This document shows positions 10,481-64,000 of a stretch of DNA of 64,000 nucleotides, one piece after another (positions within the stretch are counted from its first letter, which is position 1; each line of letters begins with the position of its first letter). Origin of the DNA: Macrostomum lignano (lineage: Eukaryota); assembly GCA_002269645.1 (NCBI GenBank), contig NIVC01000342.1, positions 186,001-250,000 of the forward strand, in the 5' to 3' direction. The notes under the pieces are model-generated. The model made no database searches and was not told the origin of the DNA. It was given only the letters and a program-made list of their open reading frames with translations. Both the position numbers and the translations under genes were made by a program.

Positions 10481-11430
10481 TGAGGTGGGGGTGGAGAAGA
10501 AAATAAAAAGAAAACTTTGAAATTGGGAGAATAAAATTTGGGTTTGTCGTCGGCACGTAAAGCCGGAAAATTGTGCAATTGATGCGTTGATTCTTCTCCT
10601 TGGTTACTCCGTCTGCCGGGTCCTCAATTCCGGGGGGAGGGTAGTCGTAATCGTAGTCGAGCGGTCTAGTAGCGGCCCGAGTCGTTCAGAATGGGTCCTC
10701 AGACACCGTAAACTCGTGATTCGTCGAGAATTGCTAGTTGTGTTACTCTCAGTAGTAAAGTAGCGCTGCCACCACCGTAAATGTCGTTTTACGGAACGTT
10801 TAGGGTCTCAGAGCTTTCTTTGAGATGAGACTGATTGGTTATTTTACGCCCCGCGGGCAAATGACTCAATAGAAACTAAAGGCTTCGATTCTGAACAACT
10901 GTATGAATAATATTAATATTGGCGAACTTATTAATTAGGATTGCGTGGTTATTATTATTGTTACTTATTTATTACTACGCGAGATGAAACGATCAGAAAC
11001 AGAAAAGGAGAACTAGAATTAAAACTAAAACTAACTAAACTAACACACACAAAACTAAAACTAACGAACAAAAGAAAAAAAAACTAAAAGGGGGGGGGGG
11101 CAAAAAAATGTCTCCAGAGAAAACTCATATAAATAACATTTTGGCGGGAAGGATCCCAGGGGTGGGACGGAGGATGGGACAAGGGAAGGGACAACGAAGG
11201 GAAAAAGGAAAACCCGGCCGCTGGAAACATTAAAACAACAGGGGCCAAGGGAGGGAACAGAAAAGGGAACAGACGAGGGAGCAAGGGCGGGAACAACCGG
11301 GGGAACAAACCAGGGAACAAAAATTGAAAAAAATGACGTCAATCCGTCCGTGGAACTGGGTGGAATGTCCCGCCGGTGTTCGCGCTAGAGGCCTGCCGTC
11401 GTTCTCCCAGTGGTAGACCGGCCTACCACA
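10481..11430 (-). repeat. 3' LTR (950 bp)
   Basis: Starts TGTGGTAGG and ends CCACCTCA on the minus strand. Direct repeat of 19394-20341. Confidence 0.97.
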
Positions 11431-11482
11431 GGCGCGGGGGCGCCGGGGCGAACGGCAGCAGACAGACGAACTCCCGGACGTC

Positions 11483-12050
11483 TCAGTGGCGGCGATCCTG
11501 CTTCGCCGGCCGGCCTCGGCGGGCAGGGGCGTTCGGATCTGACGGCGGCGAGCTTGCGACGCGTGCCTGATGGCTCAGCTGGAGATTGAGCAGCTGCAGG
11601 CGCTGCCCGTCAAAAAAAGAGCCGCTCCGGGCGCCTCTCGATGGCGACCTCCCAGAAGTGGCGAACTTCGGGCAGCCATCCGCTCTGGAGGTGGCCCGCC
11701 TCCCAGTACGCCAGAACAATGAATAAGGCGAGGGCAGGCCGAGGCCGTCCGCCTTCGCGGAAGCAGGTATCAGCGCGCCGCAGCGTTTCATCGAGAAGCT
11801 CCCGCGTGGTCGTGGGCGGCATCTCGCGGCAGAGTGTCCGCCATGGGGCGTCCACTTGAACGCGGCCCTTGTCGGCCGCCTGGTGGTAGGCCTCGTTGAG
11901 CGCGCGGCGAAGCTGTTCACGGGCCGGGGCCGCGCCGCTCGGGGCATAAGACAAGGCTCGCAAGGTGTCTGACTCGCTCGACGATAGCCAGGGCGCTTGA
12001 AAAAGGAGGTCCGGCGAGGCACCAGCGCTGTCGGTCCCGTTGTTTGCCAT
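11483..12050 (-). CDS. Orphan ORF3 of the LTR element (146 aa; ~188 aa if the A7 run at 11612-11618 is really A6)
   Basis: ATG start and GC-rich coding-like composition between an AT-rich linker and the 3' LTR. Removing one base joins LFF to DGQRLQLL...ARRGRPAKQDRRH. No family recognised. Confidence 0.6.
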
Positions 12051-12939
12051 ATTCGAAGCGGCGGAGCGTGATGCGACAGTCCGAAATATTCAGTTGGCAG
12101 GTCGGATCAACAGAATTGGAGAAAATAAAATTGAAGATGGCTCCTTAAATAGGGCGCAAAATATTCCAACTGGTGGAATTCCAAACCAACCAGAGGAAAT
12201 AAAATTCAACCACTGGAATTGAGCCATCACCCCCGTGCACTCTAAGGTGGCACACAGAGTTGGGGTGGGCGCATGAATCAAGGAGTCATAAAATAGATAA
12301 CCGCGCGGCAGGGGTCCAAAATCAGAATGAATGAATGGGGGCGCCTCACACGGCTCACAAAACAGGTTGGCGGTTAGAGAGAGAGGGGCCGAACACTCGA
12401 ATAAACAGTAGTTTAGAAAATAGTAAGAACATAGGTAGTTCCTAAAAATTAGAATAGCAGATAGATACAGGCATAGTGACCGAGTTAGAATTTGGATCTC
12501 CATAAGGAGTTACACAAAACGGCAAAAGGCACTGGGAAGGGGCTGGACAGGCGCCCTTACAAATTTTCCAGGCTCGGCTCGGTCAGAACAAAGAAAATGG
12601 GGGCCGTTCACCTCAGATGCCCTCCGCTGAGGACAAGGCCTAGAGCCAGGGTGGCTAGACCTGAGCGGGGCAAACGACTGGGACACCAGAGCAACATTGG
12701 CTTGCAAAAATTAAAAGATACCTTCAGCCACAAGCAAGGACTGCAAGGTTACAACTGAAATAAAACTTCGCAAAGTTAATGACACGCAATTGAGCAAATT
12801 AATGAATCGCATGCGGATAAATAATTGTCGCGTAGGTGCTGGCTTTTCTCATCAAGCCTAAGGCTAAATATCAGAACGCAGAAGTGCGGGTCGCGTTGAA
12901 TAAATATGACACCAATTGAGCATGAGCACAATGTACAAA

Positions 12940-13237
12940 GGCTTTTGACCGGAAAGCGTAAGGAGCAGAAATTAAAAAAAAGTTGCTTTTGCCCTCAAGC
13001 ATAAGGAAAGTACAGAAAACGAGTTGCTTTTACCCTCAAGCATAAGGAAAGTACATTGAGAAACACTGCTTTTGCCATCAAGCATAAGGAAACGGACAGA
13101 AAAATTAGTTGCTTTTATCCCTCAAGCATAAGGAAACGGACAGAAAATTGTTGCTTTTATCCCTCAAGCATAAGGAAACGGACAGAAATAGCGAAATTGA
13201 CACCTGCTTTTATCCCGAAAGCATAAGGAGAACAAAA
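12940..13237. repeat. Seven ~41-54-bp repeats (core TGCTTTTATCCCTCAAGCATAAGGAAA) downstream of pol
   Basis: Units start near 12940, 12982, 13021, 13064, 13108, 13150 and 13204. Confidence 0.9.
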
Positions 13238-13397: not shown

Positions 13398-16300
13398 TTA
13401 GAGCTCCATCTCCATGCCGATGTCAGGCAAGTCCGGGTCGCCTTCGGCGAGCACCTCCGGGTGGCGCAAGCTGGGCTCGAACAGCTGACTGCCTCGCAGG
13501 TCAGGCTGAACTGTGGCCGGCTGCTCTGGCGCGGGCTGATCGGCTGGGTCGACTTCGCTGTCTTCGCTCGACTCATAGGGCAGCATTGGCCGCTCTGTTT
13601 GGCGCGGCGGCTCCTGTGGTCGATCTGCCATCATCTGCGGCACCTTGATGATGTTGTTACGATGAACTAGCATTTCAGCTGGGCGTCCTCGGCGGGCTGT
13701 CGCTGGTTTGATCCAATACGCCACTTCTCCGACTTTCCTGACGACCTTGTACATACTCTTGTACGGCCGGTGGAACTTGGGTAGCTCTCCCAGTTCGAGC
13801 TTCGGGTTGGCCAGGCAGACCAAGTCTCCGGGCTGCAGCTCCACGGGCTTCGGCCGGTTCTCGTAGTACTCCTCTCGGCGCTGGATCTCGGTCCTCAGTC
13901 GCTGTCGCACAATTCGTTCTGTCTCGGCCAGTCTGCGCTGATGTTTAGCAATGTACTCCGGGAGATCAGCTGATACATCCAGTCGGTCTAGGGTGTTATC
14001 GATCGGATACCGGTAGGGCACTCCGTAGATGACATAATGCGGCGAGAACCCGGTTGTACGATTGACTGCTGATCTTAAAGCTGTTAAAGCAGCTGGCAAC
14101 ATCTTGTCCCATTGCTGATGGTCTTCTAGGAGACAGGTGAGCACCTTCTTGATGTTCTTATTGCACGACTCAGCTTGTCCATTGGCCCATGGCGAATACG
14201 GCGGCGTCGTGGTCTGCCGGATGCCGTAAACTTCGCAGAAGTGCCGGAACTCGTGTCCTGTGAACTGTTTCCCTTGATCGGAGTGAATCCATGCCGGGAT
14301 TCCGGTGATCGGAAACACTTGTTCCTGCAGGAGCGTTATAATGGTCTTGGCCCGCTGATTCTTCATGGCGAAAGCGAAGGGGTATTTCGACGTAGTGTCG
14401 ACGTAGGTCAAGATGTACTTGTTTCCTCGGTCCGTCGGGTCTCCAGTGGGGCCCAGGATGTCGATCGCACATCGCCCATAGATTTCACAGACCGGAAACG
14501 ATTGTACATGCGCCGGAATTCGTCGCCGTCCTTTGCTCTGAGTGCAGGTCTGGCAGGAAGCGACATAGTCGGACACTGCCTTGGCCAGAGCAGGTCGCCA
14601 GAACCTTTCTCGCACCTTCGCGATGGTGAGGTCTCGGCCCATGTGTCCGCAGTAGGGTGAACCGTGGAGGTCGGCGAACACCGTGGCGTCGAGGCTCTTC
14701 GGCAGGACGATCCGCGCCGTTTCCTCCTCGCCAAGATCGTCGAAATGAATTACCAGTAGTCCATCATCTCGGACTTCGAGCTGCTCGTAGAACGCTAATA
14801 AGTTTCGTTCGTCTCGTGTCATATTCAAACGCTGATTCAGCGGCGGCTTCGGCTGTCGGCTTTCCAAAAGATTGATCATCATGGCGATGGCAGAGTCAGC
14901 ACGCTGATGAGTCTGGAGCTCCTCACGAGTGACTGGCCTCGGGATGTGATCAGTTAGATTCAATGTTGAACGTCGATTAGTCAAATTAGTCGGCGCGGCT
15001 TCGGCTGTGGCGGCATGGTTCGGGGTCTGGAGCTCCCTCCGCACGATCGCTACTCTGGCCGGTTGCCGGGTCGTTGATGTGCCCGAAGGTCGATCCTCGT
15101 CGGTAGCTTCGGCGTCACTGTTGTCGGATTCAGATCGGTCAGCAGTTGATGATGAGTCAGCAGAGCTGTCCGCGTCGCTGCTGAATCTCACCTTCTTCTC
15201 AAACTTCGGGCAGCGAGCGAGTTGGCAGCTGTCCTCTCTGGCTGCGCTGTGGTCGCTGTCCGTGCCGTCTCCAGCTAGTAGTCGGCGGCTCCTTGACGGG
15301 CAACATGTCGTGCTACTAAAACTGGTAGGCGACCTCTGCGAGTCATCGTAACGGCTGGCTGATGGCCTCGGCTTCGTCGCCGGCGGGTGCAGCTCTGTCA
15401 GCGGCTTGCTGTCGGCTGTCGGTGTTGCTGGCGGCGTAGCCTCGCCGTTGGACTCCTTAGGCTTAGTCGGCGGTTTCCGTCGCTTACGGTGGGTCGACGG
15501 CTTCTTGCACGGTGGGGGACTAGGGTGGCTGCTGTCGTGGACCTTCGGCGCCGCTGCGCCAGTTATCGCGGCTGGCTGCTTACTTTGGTCCTCATCAGCT
15601 GCCTCGCGCTGAGCCTCCTCCAAGCATTCGGCGTCGTCCTCCGGCCGTCTCGAGAGACCGTCGGCGTTTTGGTGCTGACTCGATTTGCGATGCTGGATCT
15701 CGAACTCAAATTCACTTAGCCGCTGTAGCCATCGTCCGAAGATGCCTACTTGTTGAGTTCGCCGGAGAATCCAGGTCAACGCTGCATGGTCGGTTCGACA
15801 AATGAACTTCTTGGCCAGCAGGTAGAAACGGAAATGTCTCATGCCATCTACGACTGCCAAGAGTTCTTGCTTAGTAATTGGATATCGGGCTTCAGCCGGT
15901 TTAAGTCGCCGGGAGAAATAGCCAATTGGGCGCTCGATCCCGTCAGCTTGGCGTTGGCTCAGGCAGGCTCCGATTCTGGTCGCAGAAGCATCCGTGTCCA
16001 GGATAAACATTACTTCCGGATCCTCGCTGAACTGCGGATACGCGAGCACTGATGTCGAAGTCATGGCTGCTTTGAGCTGGTCGAACGCGTCTTGCTGGGC
16101 TTTTCCCCATAGACAATTGAAATTGCGGATTTTCTTCTCTTTGATTATATCGTGGAGCGGAGCTGCAAGTTCTGCATAGCCAGGTACAAATTTTGCATAG
16201 TAAGCGCACGTGCAGACAAAACTTTTAAGTTGTCGAGCTGTTCTTGGTCTTGGCCAGGTCTGAATAGCCTCGATCTTCGCCGGATCGGTCTTGATGCCGT

Positions 16301-17342
16301 CCTTAGTAACTACATGTCCCAGATAGTTTAGGCTTGCCCGAAATAAATGGCACTTCCTGCCTTTGAACTTTAAGTTGGCCTCTTGAATTCGCTTAAATAC
16401 TTCCTCCATATGCTGTAGATGGTCATTAAATTTCTTAGAATAGACGATTACGTCATCCAGATAGGCTATTGCACTTTTATAGGCGATTCCGTTGAGCACA
16501 GCGTTCATGAGGCGCATGAAGCTGGCTGGCGCCGAACTTAATCCCATAGGCATCACATTGTAGGCGAATTGTCCGCGGTGCAGCGTGGCGAAGGCCGTCA
16601 GATCTTGATCCTCTGGGCGCAGTGGAATCTGATAGTAGCCGCTGTTCAAGTCGAACGTGCTGAATAGCTGGCTTCCTTCGAGGCTAGCGAACGCTTCCTG
16701 GATGTTTGGTATCGGGTACGGAAAGTACTCGCACTTTTGGTTCAGACTCCTGAAGTCTTGTACAATTCTCAGGCTGCCGTCCTTCTTCGGGATGATCACC
16801 AGCGGGGTGTTGTAGCTGGAGAAACTCGGTCTAATCACGCCTTTGGCAAGCAGATCGTCAAGCAGCTGGTCCACCTTGGGCAGCAAATGCGGCGGAATCC
16901 TTCGGGTCGGCAGATGTACAGGATTCTTGTCCTTCAACACGGTGTTGTGGGTGACCAGGTGAGTTCGGCCGAGATCGTGTGGCCCCTGCGAGAAGATGGT
17001 CTTGTATTTCTTCAATAGCTCGATGACTTGAGCGCGCTGGTCATTGGACAAGTCCTCGCCGATGTCGATCTCTTTGATCCAAGCGTCAGGATCTTCGTCT
17101 TGAACTTGATTGACTGAAGCTTCTGGCTTCGGCAGCGGAAAGAATTGTAACTCGGGCAGTCTGATTGGTCTAGCAATCCCAACTAGGGCATTCGCTCGCA
17201 CTTTGATGGAAGTAGTGCCTCGATTGATCATTTCAATAGCGCCTTCTCCGTTGGCCATAGATATTAGGGCAGGCGCGGCGTCCAGTTGCTGCACATCTTC
17301 TTCCCGCCGAGCCGGTTTTAGCGGCTCGATCACAGCGGTGTG
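13398..17342 (-). CDS. pol: Gypsy Pol: RT, RNase H, long linker, integrase
   Basis: RT: LRIVQDFRSLN, DLNSGYYQIPL, YLDD. RNase H: LDTDAS, KQELLAV, TDHAAL, ADGLSR. Integrase: H-x6-H...CQTC zinc finger plus IDILGP, HSDQG, NGQAE. Confidence 0.97.
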   Translation of the reverse strand, partial: HTAVIEPLKPARREEDVQQLDAAPALISMANGEGAIEMINRGTTSIKVRANALVGIARPIRLPELQFFPLPKPEASVNQVQDEDPDAWIKEIDIGEDLSNDQRAQVIELLKKYKTIFSQGPHDLGRTHLVTHNTVLKDKNPVHLPTRRIPPHLLPKVDQLLDDLLAKGVIRPSFSSYNTPLVIIPKKDGSLRIVQDFRSLNQKCEYFPYPIPNIQEAFASLEGSQLFSTFDLNSGYYQIPLRPEDQDLTAFATLHRGQFAYNVMPMGLSSAPASFMRLMNAVLNGIAYKSAIAYLDDVIVYSKKFNDHLQHMEEVFKRIQEANLKFKGRKCHLFRASLNYLGHVVTKDGIKTDPAKIEAIQTWPRPRTARQLKSFVCTCAYYAKFVPGYAELAAPLHDIIKEKKIRNFNCLWGKAQQDAFDQLKAAMTSTSVLAYPQFSEDPEVMFILDTDASATRIGACLSQRQADGIERPIGYFSRRLKPAEARYPITKQELLAVVDGMRHFRFYLLAKKFICRTDHAALTWILRRTQQVGIFGRWLQRLSEFEFEIQHRKSSQHQNADGLSRRPEDDAECLEEAQREAADEDQSKQPAAITGAAAPKVHDSSHPSPPPCKKPSTHRKRRKPPTKPKESNGEATPPATPTADSKPLTELHPPATKPRPSASRYDDSQRSPTSFSSTTCCPSRSRRLLAGDGTDSDHSAAREDSCQLARCPKFEKKVRFSSDADSSADSSSTADRSESDNSDAEATDEDRPSGTSTTRQPARVAIVRRELQTPNHAATAEAAPTNLTNRRSTLNLTDHIPRPVTREELQTHQRADSAIAMMINLLESRQPKPPLNQRLNMTRDERNLLAFYEQLEVRDDGLLVIHFDDLGEEETARIVLPKSLDATVFADLHGSPYCGHMGRDLTIAKVRERFWRPALAKAVSDYVASCQTCTQSKGRRRIPAHVQSFPVCEIYGRCAIDILGPTGDPTDRGNKYILTYVDTTSKYPFAFAMKNQRAKTIITLLQEQVFPITGIPAWIHSDQGKQFTGHEFRHFCEVYGIRQTTTPPYSPWANGQAESCNKNIKKVLTCLLEDHQQWDKMLPAALTALRSAVNRTTGFSPHYVIYGVPYRYPIDNTLDRLDVSADLPEYIAKHQRRLAETERIVRQRLRTEIQRREEYYENRPKPVELQPGDLVCLANPKLELGELPKFHRPYKSMYKVVRKVGEVAYWIKPATARRGRPAEMLVHRNNIIKVPQMMADRPQEPPRQTERPMLPYESSEDSEVDPADQPAPEQPATVQPDLRGSQLFEPSLRHPEVLAEGDPDLPDIGMEMEL

Positions 17343-17986
17343 CCCTGGTTTTCTTCTCGTCCTTTTGCTAGTTTAATCTTGATTCGGGCTGATGATAACG
17401 GCGGCACGGTTGTGCTCTCAGCCGTGTAAATTCTGCACGTGGTAGCTTCGGTTCGCGTATAGCGCAGTGGTGCGGCAGTGCCATCCTTGAAAAACAGCAT
17501 CCCGGCGGCGAGATCCAGTGATGTACTGTACTTCTCCAGGAACTCGAAGCCCAGGATGTTGTCATGAGATCCCTTCGCTAGCAGGAACTTGACTGTAGGC
17601 TCGAAACTCCCAATTTTAACTTTGATTGATAGTTGGCCTGCCATTTGAATAGGCTCTTCATTGTAGGTCACAATGCGTTGCAGGCAGGGCTCGATTTGGC
17701 CACGCAGGGTCGGGTCATCGGTACATAGTCGGTGCCAGGTGCTGAATCCTAGGACTTCGCACTTGGAGCCGGTGTCAAGCAGAAAAGCAAAATAACGACC
17801 CTGAATCTCACCAGTTAGAAACGGATCCCTTCGGGGTCGCTTGGGTGCAGAGTTATGTACAGGTGCAGCGGAGGCGGTCTCAGCAGTGGCCTGCTGAGCG
17901 ACTAAAGTCCTCGGCGGGGACCTTAGTACTGGCTCGGCTGCTGGATGGCGCTGCCCCCGTTGGCGCGTCCAGCCGTCCCGTTTCCC
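17330..17986 (-). CDS. Gypsy aspartic protease in the -1 frame relative to gag; separated from RT by an apparent 1-nt deletion at 17343-17345
   Basis: FLLDTGS catalytic motif and ILGFEFL flap-adjacent motif. Confidence 0.92.
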   Translation of the reverse strand, partial: GKRDGWTRQRGQRHPAAEPVLRSPPRTLVAQQATAETASAAPVHNSAPKRPRRDPFLTGEIQGRYFAFLLDTGSKCEVLGFSTWHRLCTDDPTLRGQIEPCLQRIVTYNEEPIQMAGQLSIKVKIGSFEPTVKFLLAKGSHDNILGFEFLEKYSTSLDLAAGMLFFKDGTAAPLRYTRTEATTCRIYTAESTTVPPLSSARIKIKLAKGREENQGTPL

Positions 17987-19326
17987 GAGCTGCCGTTGCG
18001 CTGGGGCGCGGTGCTGGCCGACCGCCGGTGCGGGCACTCATCGGCGCGGTGCTCGCGATTGCACCTGTAACACATAGCGCTCTGTCGCCGCAGCTGATAG
18101 GGCGGCGGGCGTGAACCCGACTGTTGCTGCCGCTGCGGCTGCTGCTGCTGCTGCTGTCGACGTTGACCTCCTGCTGGCGGCGTCCTTGGCGGCGGGTTGC
18201 TGCCGTCTCGTGGTTGCTGAAGTCGATGGAACTGCTCGTGCTGCACAATCCGTGTGCCGGGTGTCTTGAATTGGGCGCTCTCATCGGCGCTGCGGCGAGG
18301 AGTCGAGAGCACCGAACATCTGTTGCGTTGGCCCCAAGAGTCCTGCGGCTGGTGGCGAGCAGATTCCCAATGCTCCTGGGTGTCGTTATTGCGCGATCCC
18401 AGCGAGTGGAACTCTCGCAGCTCATTACTCAAAGCTTCTAGTAGACGTCGCTGCTCTTGCAGTGTCTCAGTTTGCTGTTCCATCACTTCACGCAACCAAT
18501 TCTCCTCGGGCCGAGATGACCTGTCGTGTTGCACTCCAGTTGGTGACTGACTGTCGTCATCTTCGAGAACCCGGACATGTCTCGCTGATGGCGGCGGTGC
18601 TACCCTCTGAGCCAGGCTAGCTGCTGTCTCCAGGCGTAGCACAGCCCTTCTCGCTGCGGTCAGATTCTGCGGTCGCACCAGGATTAGCTGTTCTCTGGCT
18701 GACTGGGCGATTCGCACTCCCACGGTGAACTGGTCCACTAGCTCGGCCTGCTTCTGAACCGGGGTGAAGTGCGGGAACGCTCTATCGGCCAGAGCAATTA
18801 ATCGATCGCCGTAGTCATCCACACTCTCATTCTTGCCTTGCTGGCAGCACCGGAATTGCTCACGGTACTCCAGCGTGTCGGCCACGTGCGTGAAGCGCTC
18901 GGACAGTCTTTGCTTGAATTCGCCAAACGTCAGATTGTCCGGCAGTTCCATCCTGACGACTGCGGGATAGGTTGTGGCGATGTCCAAATTCACTAGGACT
19001 TCCGCCTTCTTACGTCTGTCGTCCACGATCCCGTTGAGTTCGCAACGCTCCTCGAGAGCCTGGATCCAGACGTCAAAGTCCTGGTTCGGGGTGTACCGCT
19101 GAATCTTGACCGGTTTCGGCGCTGGAGCGCGGTCAGGCTGTTGGGGCGGCTGATACACGTGGTGATGGTGCTGCGGCTGTCCCAAGTTGGCCTGCTCCAG
19201 TCGCCGTCTCACCTCTTCGGTTACTGCTCGAATCATCTCGTCGTAGGTCGGCCTAGTAGTTGAGTTGTCGGGGCCCGCGGCGTCGGCTGTCGAATCCGCG
19301 GCCGTTGAGTTAGTTGTCGAAGCCAT
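17923..19326 (-). CDS. gag: Gypsy Gag (467 aa from MASTTN)
   Basis: Capsid-like FDVWIQALEERCELNG...YGDRLIALADRAFP and a zinc knuckle with CX2CX3HX4C spacing (CYRCNREHRADEC). Confidence 0.93.
   Translation of the reverse strand: MASTTNSTAADSTADAAGPDNSTTRPTYDEMIRAVTEEVRRRLEQANLGQPQHHHHVYQPPQQPDRAPAPKPVKIQRYTPNQDFDVWIQALEERCELNGIVDDRRKKAEVLVNLDIATTYPAVVRMELPDNLTFGEFKQRLSERFTHVADTLEYREQFRCCQQGKNESVDDYGDRLIALADRAFPHFTPVQKQAELVDQFTVGVRIAQSAREQLILVRPQNLTAARRAVLRLETAASLAQRVAPPPSARHVRVLEDDDSQSPTGVQHDRSSRPEENWLREVMEQQTETLQEQRRLLEALSNELREFHSLGSRNNDTQEHWESARHQPQDSWGQRNRCSVLSTPRRSADESAQFKTPGTRIVQHEQFHRLQQPRDGSNPPPRTPPAGGQRRQQQQQQPQRQQQSGSRPPPYQLRRQSAMCYRCNREHRADECPHRRSASTAPQRNGSSGNGTAGRANGGSAIQQPSQY
17940..17986 (-). 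promoter_or_regulatory. -1 programmed ribosomal frameshift signal (G_GGA_AAC, 6-nt spacer, stem-loop)
   Basis: Heptamer at 17986-17980 is in gag phase, and a -1 slip enters the protease frame (GKRDGW). The downstream hairpin GCUGGA/UCCAGC has an inner GCGC/GCGC stem. Confidence 0.8.
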
Positions 19327-19372: not shown

Positions 19373-19392
19373 ATCCCACTTAGCTGACACCA
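19373..19392 (-). promoter_or_regulatory. Primer binding site, tRNA-Leu-like
   Basis: TGGTGTCAG(CT)AAGTGGGAT lies 1 nt after the 5' LTR. It equals the complement of a tRNA-Leu 3' end (TGGTGTCAGAAGTGGGAT) plus a 2-nt insertion. Confidence 0.8.
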
Positions 19393-19393
19393 A

Positions 19394-20341
19394 TGAGGTG
19401 GGGGTGGAGAAGAAAACAAAAAGAAAACTTTGAAATTGGGAGAATAAAATTTGGGTTTGTCGTCGGCACGTAAAGCCGGAAAATTGTGCAATTGATGCGT
19501 TGATTCTTCTCCTTGGTTACTCCGTCTGCCGGGTCCTCAATTCCGGGGGGAGGGTAGTCGTAATCGTAGTCGAGCGGTCTAGTAGCGGCCCGAGTCGTTC
19601 AGAATGGGTCCTCAGACACCGTAAACTCGTGATTCGTCGAGAATTGCTAGTTGTGTTACTCTCAGTAGTAAAGTAGCGCTGCCACCACCGTAAATGTCGT
19701 TTTACGGAACGTTTAGGGTCTCAGAGCTTTCTTTGAGATGAGACTGATTGGTTATTTTACGCCCCGCGGGCAAATGACTCAATAGAAACTAAAGGCTTCG
19801 ATTCTGAACAACTGTATGAATAATATTAATATTGGCGAACTTATTAATTAGGATTGCGTGGTTATTATTATTGTTACTTATTTATTACTACGCGAGATGA
19901 AACGATCAGAAACAGAAAAGGAGAACTAGAATTAAAACTAAAACTAACTAAACTAACACACACAAAACTAAAACTAACGAACAAAAGAAAAAAAACTAAA
20001 AGGGGGGGGGCAAAAAAATGTCTCCAGAGAAAACTCATATAAATAACATTTTGGCGGGAAGGATCCCAGGGGTGGGACGGAGGATGGGACAAGGGAAGGG
20101 ACAACGAAGGGAAAAAGGAAAACCCGGCCGCTGGAAACATTAAAACAACAGGGGCCAAGGGAGGGAACAGAAAAGGGAACAGACGAGGGAGCAAGGGCGG
20201 GAACAACCGGGGGAACAAACCAGGGAACAAAAATTGAAAAAAATGACGTCAATCCGTCCGTGGAACTGGGTGGAATGTCCCGCCGGTGTTCGCGCTAGAG
20301 GCCTGCCGTCGTTCTCCCCAGTGGTAGACCGGCCTACCACA
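19394..20341 (-). repeat. 5' LTR (948 bp)
   Basis: Differs from the 3' LTR, as far as I could see, by one substitution and three homopolymer length changes. Confidence 0.97.
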
Positions 20342-21153: not shown

Positions 21154-22533
21154 AGGCAATTGTGAAGTTTTGTTTATTAAATTTTTTTGACTCCAGAAAA
21201 ATAATCTACAAACTATTTTAAGTACAAATAAATATTTTTAAGAGACTTAAACTTGATTAAGCACTAATTCTATGCTTTAAAACTTGTTATAATGTATTTG
21301 ACACTAGAAAGCTACAATAGTCTATGCCTATGGCCAGAATTTTAGAACATTTTTTGACTTGAAAAGAAGTCTATGGTATTTGAAACATACTCAAAGTAAT
21401 TGTGGCATCAACTGAATGGCAATCCTTCAGTTTACAATCACCATCTATTTTGCCAGTTTTGGTTTATAATCATCTTTTTTGTTTACTGCAGTGCAAAAAT
21501 GGCATGTTGAAAACTAAGACATAAAAAATGGAAAGAAAGCAAAAGTTGGCTGATCAACTAACTTGATAGATTATATATCAGTTCACTAGTAGCTTATTTA
21601 TATTTCAAAAGAAAGTTTATTTCAAACAATGATAAGATTGTCATAGCACCTTATATTTCACCTTTGGTTTACAATCACCCAAACGTATGTTTCCCATTGA
21701 AATGATTGTAAACCAAAGCTAGCTGTAGGAAAAGCATGTCAACCCTAGCTTAGTATAATTAATCTTTAGTGTTGCACCCTCCTCATTTTCAGTTTACGAT
21801 CACTACCATACATACACTTTGTTGAAATGATTGTGAACCAAAGCTGGCTATAGGAAAGCATGTCAACCTTTAATACACTTTCTTATGGCTAGCTTTGGTT
21901 GACAATTATTTTAATAGGCAACATATGTTTTGGTGATCATAAACTAAAGGTGAAATAGGCCTATACAGGCTACTATAGCTCAAACTTGCAACTTAATAGT
22001 TGCCAGCTTTAGTTCACAATCATTTCAATAAGCAACATACATTTGGGGGATTTTAAACCAAAGGTGAAATATAAGGTGCTACAACAATATTACTATCTTT
22101 TGAAATAAACAAAGTTAGTTCACCAACATTTGATTTTGTTTCATTGGAAACTATGGATTTTATGCCTTACAACTGTTTTTGTGGTGATTGTCATTTTTAA
22201 AGTGATTGTCATTGTTTGGGATGATCATAAACTGAAGGAATGCCAACTAAACCCAATGAAGCAATTTGGAAATATCCTATTATTGGATTTCCTACTACTA
22301 TAGTGTATAAAGCTTTTGTTGTTCATTGGCAATTTGACCATAGACAGTAATACTTTTTATTTATTTCTATTAAGACTTGTTTACTTGTTAACATTTTAAT
22401 GCTTAGTGCTTAAGTGCTATTAGTGCTTAATCAGGCTTAAGTCTCTTAAAAGTATTTATTTATACTTAAAATAGTTTCTAGATTACTTTTCTGGAGTCAA
22501 AATAATTTAACAAATGAAACTTGAGAATTGCCT
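21154..22533. mobile_element. Degenerate foldback/MITE-like long inverted-repeat element, ~1.4 kb
   Basis: 21154-21290 is the reverse complement of ~22410-22533, and 21644-21723 of 22002-22081. Further nested arms occur around a centre near 21870. No ORF. Confidence 0.7.
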
Positions 22534-26587: not shown

Positions 26588-26669
26588 GACGCTCTGGTCC
26601 ACAGAGCAGTTAAATTGGTAGACAACACCTGCACGCAGAGTACAAGGAACACGCGACTTTAATCTGCTA

Positions 26670-27029
26670 AAGATTGGGAACTTTGTTAGCAGATTAAAGT
26701 CGCGTGTTCCTTGTACTCTGCGTGCAGGTGTTGTCTACCAATTTAACTGCTCTGTGGACCAGAGCGTCTCCTACGTGGGGAAAACCAAAAGACACCTACA
26801 CACGAGGATCAGGGAACACTGGCTCAAACCATCTGCTATACAAACTCACCTCCTTGAATGCACTAACTGCAATGACTGCAAACCAGAAGAACACTTTAAA
26901 ATCATTGACCAAAGCCATACTGACGCCAAACTTAGAATTCTCGAGGCCCTGCACATAAAAGCTCAGACCCCGAATCTCAACACCCAATTACAACATAGTG
27001 GTGCAGGTCACGTTCTCCGCGTTTTCTGA
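26670..27029 (+). CDS. Penelope GIY-YIG endonuclease domain (partial)
   Basis: KIGNF...AGVVYQFNC...SYVGKTKRHLHTRIREH...FKII...LRILEALHIK...PNLNTQ. Confidence 0.92.
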   Translation, partial: KIGNFVSRLKSRVPCTLRAGVVYQFNCSVDQSVSYVGKTKRHLHTRIREHWLKPSAIQTHLLECTNCNDCKPEEHFKIIDQSHTDAKLRILEALHIKAQTPNLNTQLQHSGAGHVLRVF

Positions 27030-61200: not shown

Positions 61201-63169
61201 AACGCCAGCAGCAGCAGCAGCAATATAGCGGCCAGCCAAATTCTAAGCGTTTCCCTCAGTCAGCTGCACAAATGCTCTCCTTGATGACCAGCTAACCCTC
61301 AAAAACATCCATCTCTAAGCTAGTACCCCCCCCCCTGCGTTGGGCGGCTGAATAGCCTCAACCCACTAAACAGACTCTTCACTCCTGCAGCGCCGTCTCA
61401 TTCTCTCGTTTCTACCCCCGATAATTCCTGACGAATAGTTTAGTTTATATGCCGCTTTCAGGCCCCTCCAACGCTTTGAGAGACCACGACGCGGAAGGAT
61501 TGAGAGGTACGAGGCAGCTGTGTCATTAGGCTTGATCAAATTACTCATAATATATGGCTCTCCCCCCAGATGAAGCATAGGAGATGCTGCCCGCTTGAGC
61601 TGGTTACTGGCTTTCTGAGTCCTGGTATTAGCCGTCGCGGTATCCATATAGAAACGGAGTCCTGGAGACTGCCAGCCCTTACCCGCGTTTCTGATTTGAG
61701 CACAGAATTTTGTCAGCGAAGCCTCACGGAAACAACGTTGAAGAGCCTGCCTGATTAATCTCGTAGACACCTGATTTGATTATAGGCTGTCAGTCTTATA
61801 GCTAGCGTGTATTTGAAACACTTTTAATCATATTGTTACCTAGCAATAGCTTGTATGACTTCCATACGTCCATTGTTAACCTTGTCTGCGTGTCTGTCTA
61901 CCAAGCACAGTCCAGACAGCGCCTCCTCAGACTTCCTGGCCATGATAGCCAACCTAGAAACCGCACAGTACTCACCGCATCAATTGGACCCACTTCAGGT
62001 TTGGCGATCAATTAATTGTATACAAGAGCCAAGAGAAGGAGAGAAAGTAGACAAAGAGGGCAAATAGCGAATGCACACATGGACTATGAAGAGAACCCGA
62101 CGGGGTGATGACGGATAACTTGGCTTGCATAAGAGCGAAGCGTTGGCAATCAGCAGCCCCTCAACAGACGCAACTGTCCCCACACGCAAAGAATACGATC
62201 TCAAATGATTACAAAGCCTCATCTCTCAATCCAGCCCGCAGCTGCCGGCCCTGTTGTTGTTGCTTGCTGTCAAAAATTAACGGTTTCGGTTGAGTTGTCG
62301 TTTAAAAAACTGGGGGGGGGAGGGGCGCTGCTCAAACACGCCCGCACCCGATGTGCAGCTGGGTAGAATAGCTGCAGACCGCATGCACAGCACGCCACCT
62401 TGCCAATGGTGCGGAGGAGGGGGTCTGGCGGTAGCCAAGCCCAACGGGTCCGACAGCTAATATAGCCCCGAGCGATTACGTAATAACTCGATGTTGCGAG
62501 GCCTGCATGCAGTGGCGGGGTGGCTGTCTTTGCATGCTGTTTTGGCGCTTTGGCGTTTGGTGCGGGCTCGGAGCGATCCGGGCGGCATGGCGTCCGCGCT
62601 TGAATTCCCTTTGCCACATGGCCCTCCTCGAGTCCCCGCCCTCACGCATGAGTGACGGGCTTGTGACTGAACTAAAAGAAGAAGCCTGCCAGCCAGAAGC
62701 AATTTGCAGGCCGGAGCAAGACTTTAGAACCGAATTTCAATTCTTTCGAAGCGGCGCGAGAAAACCCAGCCAATTTCCGCGGCGATCCCGCCACTGCCGG
62801 CAACAAACAAATCAACGCGCTCGATTGGATATTGCAGTAGCCGCTGTGACAGCTGCTCTGACGGCTTAATAACCAATTTAAAAGCCATTGAGCAGCGCCG
62901 GAATGGTGATGTAACCGAGTGAAGACCAGCCTATTATTTCATTTGGTGTCTGTTGACCGACAGATCGCTCCTAATAAACACAGAAACAGCAAAGACCGGA
63001 TAATTCCGTTATTTTCAGTTCAACCCCTGTTTGCTCAGTAGCTTCAGCTATGCTGGTATTTATCGATCTGGAATGTGAAAAATCAATATTATCCTGCATC
63101 AATTTGATAATTGAAAATTGTATCAGAAAATTCATCAGAAACATGAATTCTCATTCCACCCTTCCTACG

Positions 63170-64000
63170 TGCTTCAGGCTGCCTCATTCCACCTCCACCC
63201 CATACTTCAGACTGAATCATTCCGCCTCCACCCCATGCTTCAGGCTGAATCATTCCACCTCCACCCCATGCTTCAGACTGAATCATTCCGCCTCCACCCC
63301 ATGCTTCAGACTGAATCATTCCACCTCCACCCCATGCTTCAGGCTGCCTCATTCCGCCTCCGCCCCATGCTTCAGGCTGCCTCATTCCACCTCCACCCCA
63401 TGCTTCAGACTGAATCATTCCACCTCCACCCCATGCTTCAGACTGAATCATTCCGCCTCCACCCCATGCTTCAGACTGAATCATTCCACCTCCACCCCAT
63501 GCTTCAGGCTGCCTCATTCCGCCTCCAACCCATGCTTCAGGCTGCCTCATTCCGCCTCCAACCCATGCTTCAGGCTGCCTCATTCCGCCTCCACCACATG
63601 CTTCAGACTGAATCATTCCGCCTCCGCCCCATGCCTCAGACTGAATCATTCCGCCTCCACCACATGCTTCAGACTGAATCATTCCGCCTCCGCCCCATGC
63701 CTCAGACTGAATCATTCCGCCTCCGCCCCATACTTCAGACTGAATCATTCCGCCTCCGCCCCATGCCTCAGACTGAATCATTCCGCCTCCGCCCCATGCC
63801 TCAGACTGAATCATTCCGCCTCCGCCCCATGCTTCAGACTGAATCATTCCGCCTCCGCCCCATGCCTCAGACTGAATCATTCCGCCTCCAACCCATGCTT
63901 CAGACTGAATCATTCCGCCTCCACCCCCATGCTTCAGGCTGCCTCATTCCGCCTCCAACCCATGCTTCAGACTGAATCATTCCGCCTCCGCCCCATGCCT
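63170..64000. repeat. 33-bp minisatellite (CCCCATGCTTCAGACTGAATCATTCCGCCTCCA)n, runs off the window end
   Basis: Tandem periodicity; explains the ORFs at 63089-63975. Confidence 0.97.

Follow-up and report, generated by a model that had tools for sequence, protein, structure and literature searches.

A dimorphic accessory gene slot between pol and the 3′ LTR of Gypsy retrotransposons in Macrostomum lignano

The window analysed here, a stretch of 64,000 nucleotides from Macrostomum lignano, carries on its minus strand a 9.9 kb Gypsy element in which the gene under study, ORF3, is located; all features of this element are given below in window coordinates and lie on the minus strand. The characters of a Ty3/Gypsy element are present, namely TG...CA LTRs, a target duplication, a primer binding site and gag followed by PR-RT-RH-IN. 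The 5′ LTR (19394–20341) is 99.5% identical to the 3′ LTR, which lies at 10481–11430, the target duplication is the 4-bp sequence CTAC, and the primer-binding-site-like sequence (19374–19392) starts with TGG one base past the LTR. The gag gene (17923–19326) has a match to Pfam Retrotrans_gag with an E value of 4e-4, under the curated cut-off, while pol, recognized by its Pfam domains, extends over 13398–18037 and has in this copy a frame break near 17338, which is a one-base indel in comparison with all three sisters (3/3). A GGGAAAC slippery heptamer at 17986–17980, in the gag/pol overlap, is a likely −1 frameshift site, and the linker between RNase H and integrase (14800–15600) is long, of low complexity, rich in Ser, Pro, Thr and Arg, and retained in the sisters. 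The Ty3/Gypsy clades given for M. lignano are Mag, CsRN1, Gmr1/Osvaldo and Mdg3 (PMC12801592).

At the usual position of the polypurine tract, the window element has a C-rich stretch (11431–11445, as judged from its purine fraction). No polypurine tract was found before the 3′ LTR in any subfamily, the purine fraction being 0.33–0.47 in 17/17 distinct pre-LTR stretches. Since the copies are young and yet have no polypurine tract, the plus-strand priming site of the ORF3 elements appears to be atypical. A conserved hairpin replacing the tract was unsupported, z being below −2 in 1 of 17 stretches. A C/G-rich stretch is found immediately 5′ of the 3′ LTR in the window element and 16 others.

The initial annotation had reported a sense-strand ORF of 146 aa between pol and the 3′ LTR, and this ORF is indeed present at 12050–11610. 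It had also predicted a form of 188 aa upon loss of one base from an A7 run at 11612–11618 (T7 in the sense of the ORF), and sisters with six bases that naturally read 188 aa do exist. Among the four closest copies, the frame ends at residue 146 in the window element and L031, which have seven T, whereas L032 and L033, with six T, encode 188 aa. Both lengths also occur in short-read contigs, seven bases in runs X1 and X3 and six in X11, X12 and X13, which excludes T7 as an assembly error and makes the window form a real truncated allele. The 146-aa ORF, defined by the ORF call, genome search, copy alignment and dN/dS, is thus a truncated allele of a 188-aa gene, hereafter cassette A; according to the copy alignment, what remains of ORF3 lies in another frame at 11483–11611 and comprises the end of the folded domain, then an Arg/Gly-rich tail. 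More distant relatives have no run at all, with TAC TTC, CAT TTT, CTG TAC or other codons at its place, and read in frame into a homologous stretch (DGQRLQLL, DGQVQLVGWP or DGRVKIQGWPP). It had been suggested that recoding at the U-run gives two isoforms; comparison of the run length across copies left this unsupported, as a shift-prone run is not conserved among active copies and the 7- and 6-base forms are genomic alleles of different copies. An upstream ORF of 139 aa (12509–12090) was rejected as a gene, being frameshifted or stopped in most sisters.

A first DNA search with this region returned sisters that match both flanks and not the ORF, their slot being filled by a different ORF, cassette B, of 243–249 aa in L011–L026, for which two genome searches gave 56 and 72 matches. 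L064, a B carrier, agrees with the window element at 97–100% identity over gag and pol, over the nearer intergenic region and over the promoter and the start of the LTR, with 91% in the repeat array and 93% in the tail, which the window element has in common with its B-type sisters. The exchanged segment begins with the start codon and closes where the folded domain ends: in the pairs f1, f1b, f3 and f4, an identity of mostly 90–100% falls to background at the ATG or shortly ahead of it and is restored at the tail, whereas a fifth aligned A/B pair is more divergent throughout. The A/B junctions are found in short-read contigs as well, with loose ends at 12040 and 11584, and the contig depths of the two junction branches are alike, at 48 and 42 in one run and 28 and 26 in another, depth being a weak measure. 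Moreover, cassette B has a conserved N-terminal region of its own that is missing from A. The accessory slot between pol and the 3′ LTR is therefore dimorphic, holding either A or B. The idea that A and B mark two parental subgenomes was discarded, since matched partners are 98.6–100% identical in RT in five pairs.

Searching the genome with the ORF3-A protein gave at least 106 matches, a lower bound, of which 47 have no stop inside the match. Values of dN/dS were estimated by the Nei-Gojobori method on a selected set of 18 A and 13 B stop-free ORFs. For cassette A, moderately diverged pairs gave about 0.07–0.12 (L060/L063: dS 0.56, dN 0.069; L091/L069: dS 0.81, dN 0.061), the 111 pairs out of 153 that were unsaturated had a median of 0.26, a single one of them reaching 1 or more, and very close, decaying pairs gave 0.5–1.1. 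For cassette B cores, the moderately diverged pairs gave 0.11 and 0.18 and the median over 63 of 78 pairs, all of them below 1, was 0.37, while RT and integrase were at 0.02. ORF3 is thus a real gene under purifying selection, with a dN/dS of around 0.1 between active lineages. In addition, its synonymous sites are near-saturated between elements whose RT dS is 0.04–1.0, so the ORF3 variants are far older than the pol that accompanies them. Two ORF3 loci are annotated genes, in a gene set that derives from RNA-seq (PMC5730564). The earlier view of an orphan, non-env and selectively maintained accessory protein is therefore supported, by this selection and by the homology searches described below. 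Some copies (L077, L091, L069, L061 and L081) have internal deletions, retained ORF3 and near-identical LTRs; in L077, ORF3 directly follows pol and the promoter region is missing.

Comparison of upstream windows pointed to a promoter of its own. A TATA-like box, TATTTAA in the window element (12145–12151), lies 60–240 bases 5′ of ORF3 in 19 of the 21 windows compared, leaving aside two copies deleted in this region, against 2 of 63 control windows. A second conserved motif, AGAGTGCAYGGGGG (12230–12243), recurs with at most 2 mismatches in 14 of 23 ORF3 upstream regions. Judging from these motifs, ORF3 is probably transcribed from this internal TATA-like promoter. The canonical three-unit heat-shock element was absent from the 260 bases upstream of 23 ORF3s and from the window LTR.

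Between pol and ORF3 there is also an array of eight short inverted repeats (GCTT-N6-10-AAGC; 12840–13224), predicted to form RNA hairpins. By repeat counts, 2–12 copies are found at this place in 20/20 elements, compared to 0–1 in their gag-pol. The outer pair of bases, which lies outside the search pattern, can pair in 36 of 46 distinct units against a shuffle mean of 25, the units being related to one another. The array tracks pol more than ORF3, and it is a candidate export or packaging signal. Its loop sets differ among subfamilies.

The tail had been read as an AT-hook, with a long form ending in PARRGRPAK. This motif is present; however, it is not the end of the protein, which continues with QDRRH before the stop. 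As had been noticed, ARRGRPA is common to the ORF3 tail frame (11524–11504) and the integrase (13697–13677), where Pfam and motif comparison place it in the C-terminal domain, within Integrase_p58_C (residues 1208–1240, E 0.047), and where it is conserved as part of pol. A 7-mer in common with the integrase arose in 2 of 5000 tail shuffles (post hoc and uncorrected), and the underlying DNA agrees at 17/21 bases, with 3/7 third positions alike; the likeness may represent a convergent basic motif or chance. The AT-hook consensus, TPKRPRGRPKK, has a GRP core with basic flanks (PMC11354804), and a looser definition asks for “GRP flanked by basic residues” (PMC4615771). In RRGRPAK the core is present, but Ala follows the Pro, and the 188-aa sister had no Pfam match. 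As a trait of the family the AT-hook does not hold, RGRP occurring in 5/31 intact tails and 4/43 flank clusters. The ORF3 tails are of low complexity, Arg making up 19% and Gly 14% of their last 30 residues, and many of them resemble RPANRGGR. RGRP is a local variant of this composition, and the common feature is the richness of the tail in Arg and Gly.

In agreement with the claim of a mostly helical protein, the helices in the predicted model of A (pLDDT 75, core 89–96) form a bundle, accompanied by a short beta hairpin and a disordered tail. The model of the B core has the same series of helices, one long, one short, one long and two more, and both models match the same residue ranges in Munc13, RZZ, SMG5-SMG7 and cobalamin-binding domains (Z 6–8.5). 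The best structural matches of A are Munc13-4 (Z 7.7, rmsd 3.3, 102 aligned) and the CID of Seb1 (Z 7.1, rmsd 3.0, 89 aligned), and the best of B reaches Z 9.4 (rmsd 3.5, 106 aligned), CID/VHS and MUN/CATCHR helical domains being the fold types with which A and B were compared. The fold matches that the two models have in common, all at Z<10, appear to be in the background range for helical bundles. A profile comparison of A and B with their tails gave a probability of 92%, largely from the common tail, while the cores alone gave 0.4% (E 0.14), like a reversed control. We lean towards A and B being ancient paralogs. To a similar degree the models favour soluble bundles of five helices whose disordered, Arg/Gly-rich tail would bind nucleic acids.

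The reported lack of a signal peptide or TM anchor was borne out in the 188-aa sister, which has no hydrophobic N-terminus and a best 19-residue Kyte-Doolittle mean of 1.05. By hydropathy, the 31 intact ORFs show no env-like segments, their best 19-residue values being 0.63–1.73 (two above 1.6) and their N-terminal 10-mers at most 1.1. Moreover, Foldseek searches of the PDB and viral libraries gave no match at E<=0.001, whether to a viral fusogen or to another fold, and no capsid fold was among the listed structural matches. The 146-aa ORF matches no Pfam family, and among 17 A members three had one weak match each; a sequence search of the PDB gave nothing under E 0.4, and the ESM Atlas gave no usable match. 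The ORF3-A profile found only M. lignano hypothetical proteins, one of them identical to the ORF of L046. A search for a cellular homolog among 1.84 billion representatives returned two M. lignano clusters alone, both of the ORF3 family, and a word-indexed search found no homolog of B outside the elements. In these searches, neither A nor B had relatives beyond M. lignano or a clear fold match.

The dimorphism is not confined to the window subfamily. Clustering 110 distinct cores (63 A and 47 B) by their downstream flank gave 47 clusters, 10 of which include both A and B, each cluster with its own variants; one further cluster is the B half of a fusion described below, and 37 are single-type in the sample, with 19 singletons. 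For 14 pairs picked by the likeness of their flanks, the fusion being one of them, the A and B trees have 6 of 11 splits in common, including all five A splits with support >=93. The A and B distances in this set are correlated (Mantel r 0.35–0.47, p<0.001), with weaker support once the close pairs f1b and f2 and the fusion are removed (r 0.37, p 0.018). A cores have a median identity of 51% to one another, and B cores one of 37%. Judged by RT, no element is closer than the B partner in 6 of 10 pairs, and judged by integrase this holds in 7 of 9; the exceptions are f1b and f2, and by RT also f5 and f8, which would reflect further shuffling of pol. The LTR pairs are 99–100% identical, over 199–1063 bases, in 16 of the 17 A and B copies examined, hence both types include young copies, and many A-only and B-only copies are young with RT and integrase free of stops.

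A search with the window promoter gave 40 rows at 39 places, of which 20 hold A, 18 hold B and one is interrupted by another insertion, redundant haplotypes being included so that assembly redundancy inflates these counts; none of the 39 places has an empty slot. Other promoters differ, the L071 type being found with three A copies and zero B, and a third A-type promoter with broken B relatives at 74% identity. No unfused element with both A and B was found in 291 loci (overlapping loci counted, the searches being lower bounds), where A and B co-occur only as an in-frame A-B fusion. This fusion represents a single old locus, present in three copies; its gag-pol is ruined, its 291 codons are open in 3/3, and its host co-option is possible. 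The copies (L045, L046 and L048, in G000 C616, C1020 and C2108) are intact and annotated. A second, A-type locus (L051–L053, in G000 C4115, C292 and C1863) is intact and annotated with no nearby gag-pol or LTR match, has a promoter with no B partner, and is possibly a domesticated gene. Tandem A-A arrangements, about 1.4 kb apart, are found at two places (L090 and L078/L245), and the tandem cassettes of L245 are from different subfamilies.

Template switching between co-packaged genomes is an established part of retroelement biology. The observed pattern requires recombination between A and B elements outside the cassette, together with selection that keeps both types, and co-packaging with template switching would probably have homogenised everything except the cassette. 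As for the selection, we put forward, with a little less than even confidence, that A- and B-carriers supply complementary halves of one accessory function, the slot holding one half or the other and each type doing best where the other is expressed. Mutual dependence of this kind could retain both types by negative frequency-dependent selection, a step that we hold as tentatively as the first. The target is a guess that we consider rather unlikely to be right: by analogy with Rev or CERV, the two proteins might act on the element's own RNA, for example on the hairpin array, at an export or packaging step. Mutual dependence is favoured over its rivals by the common promoter and LTR of the partners, their near-equal numbers and the existence of a fusion. 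Against it, the fusion sits in a dead element and hence is not a self-sufficient replicating form. In addition, with the protein made from a separate mRNA, action in trans should favour copies without ORF3, and such copies were not seen; this absence of empty elements is the weak point of the proposal. In its fullest form, which we regard as doubtful, every replicating subfamily would be a bipartite, mating-type-like retrotransposon of interdependent A and B genomes that differ in the cassette only and recombine freely elsewhere, the dimorphism would predate the split of the subfamilies, and the fusion would have been co-opted by the host.

Perhaps A and B work independently, against different host barriers or in different cell types such as testis, ovary or neoblasts, and balancing selection keeps both with no mutual dependence. 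We judge this somewhat less probable than mutual dependence; it covers purifying selection on both types, their coexistence and the scarcity of empty slots without any interaction, and the conserved N-terminal region that B alone has would suit it. Yet the common promoter and LTR of matched A and B elements lead one to expect expression in the same cell, and near 1:1 numbers are not predicted. The latter, together with the idiomorph-like edges, the homogenised pol and, weakly, the similar depths of the junction branches in two runs, would follow if A and B each marked their own genomic RNA and favoured co-packaging of one A with one B genome, which would give about equal A and B progeny with the rest of the element outcrossed. 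This needs action in cis, which an internal promoter does not readily give, and we consider it improbable. Slightly more improbable still is a progenitor of each subfamily that carried A and B in tandem, the A-only and B-only elements being deletions produced by template switching between repeated flanks. It would directly account for co-divergence and common flanks, and tandem A-A arrangements do exist at two places; however, an unfused A+B element was not seen in the 291 loci, the searches giving lower bounds, and many single-type copies are young and have an RT and integrase free of stops.

Two further readings have, in our opinion, very little chance each. One is the original proposal of a chromatin-targeting AT-hook protein, or of two recoded isoforms. 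RR-GRP-AK fits the loose definition of the hook (PMC4615771), the 7-mer common with the integrase is rare in shuffles and RGRP recurs in four flank clusters, but RGRP is missing from 26 of 31 intact tails, and the run is unconserved with both of its lengths being genomic alleles. The other, to which we give equally little credence, is a self-limiting restriction factor like p22 of Ty1, by which ORF3 would curb its own element, and for which the host would have retained two old loci. In fact, the two annotated ORF3 loci are open despite a ruined or absent gag-pol; nonetheless, two stable types are left unaccounted for, and the listed structural matches include no capsid fold.

The fungal mating-type idiomorphs are dissimilar cassettes that occupy one locus between common flanks, coexist for long periods and occasionally fuse. 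The layout of A and B is the same, although here the carrier is a retrotransposon and the likeness is one of cassette arrangement alone.

Non-env third ORFs are already known (PMC5408684, PMC7264820), and the dimorphic A/B slot is the unexpected part. In the LTR retrotransposons of bdelloid rotifers, the third ORF likewise follows pol in animal LTR elements, with several types and modular sharing; those ORF3s are env or captured enzymes (GDSL esterase, DEDDy exonuclease), recognisable and spread over distant lineages, whereas here two orphan cassettes alternate in near-identical backbones and co-diverge (PMC5408684). CERV of the C. elegans element Cer1 is, like ORF3, an orphan accessory protein of an animal LTR retrotransposon and serves as a model for action on the element's own RNA; as described, it is set apart by its large size, spliced mRNA and G-like and cysteine-loop domains, ORF3 being small, with its own TATA-like box and two forms (PMC10309623). 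In plant LTR retrotransposons, the interval from pol to the 3′ LTR also contains sense ORFs, conserved in most copies and of unknown origin; unlike ORF3, these are mostly env-like with TM segments, and the accessible text describes no two-form system (PMC7264820). The VANC anti-silencing proteins of Arabidopsis VANDAL elements resemble ORF3 as subfamily-specific accessory proteins beside noncoding short repeats, but VANDALs are DNA transposons with one gene type, while ORF3 belongs to a retrotransposon and has two (PMC5735166, PMC10398659). In the accessible portions of the literature consulted, we found neither this ORF3 nor an accessory slot with two forms described; an earlier classification paper behind PMC12801592 and the bioRxiv supplements lie outside this scope and may bear on novelty. 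The term “ORF” is absent from the accessible text of PMC12801592, and three motifs of the element are missing from its five supplements.

The extra ORFs of LTR retrotransposons, known and mostly unexplained, have been regarded as a single gene in each family. A polymorphism of two forms that has long persisted in a selfish element, separately in at least 10 subfamilies, points to balancing selection or to cooperation between element types, comparable to what is seen in multipartite viruses or mating types. Two orphan families of helical proteins and two possibly domesticated genes are added as well. With transgenesis established in M. lignano (PMC5730564) and young natural copies of both types at hand, the question can be addressed on endogenous elements.

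Finally, the integrase C-termini and ORF3s of older copies show many changes of Arg to Cys, His, Gln or stop, as well as TAG changes, and this pattern suggests decay of the CpG type. Elsewhere in the window (21154–22533, 26588–26768, 28700–52400 and 63038–63997), nested MITE-like inverted repeats, a perfect palindrome of 83 bp and many minisatellite arrays are found.
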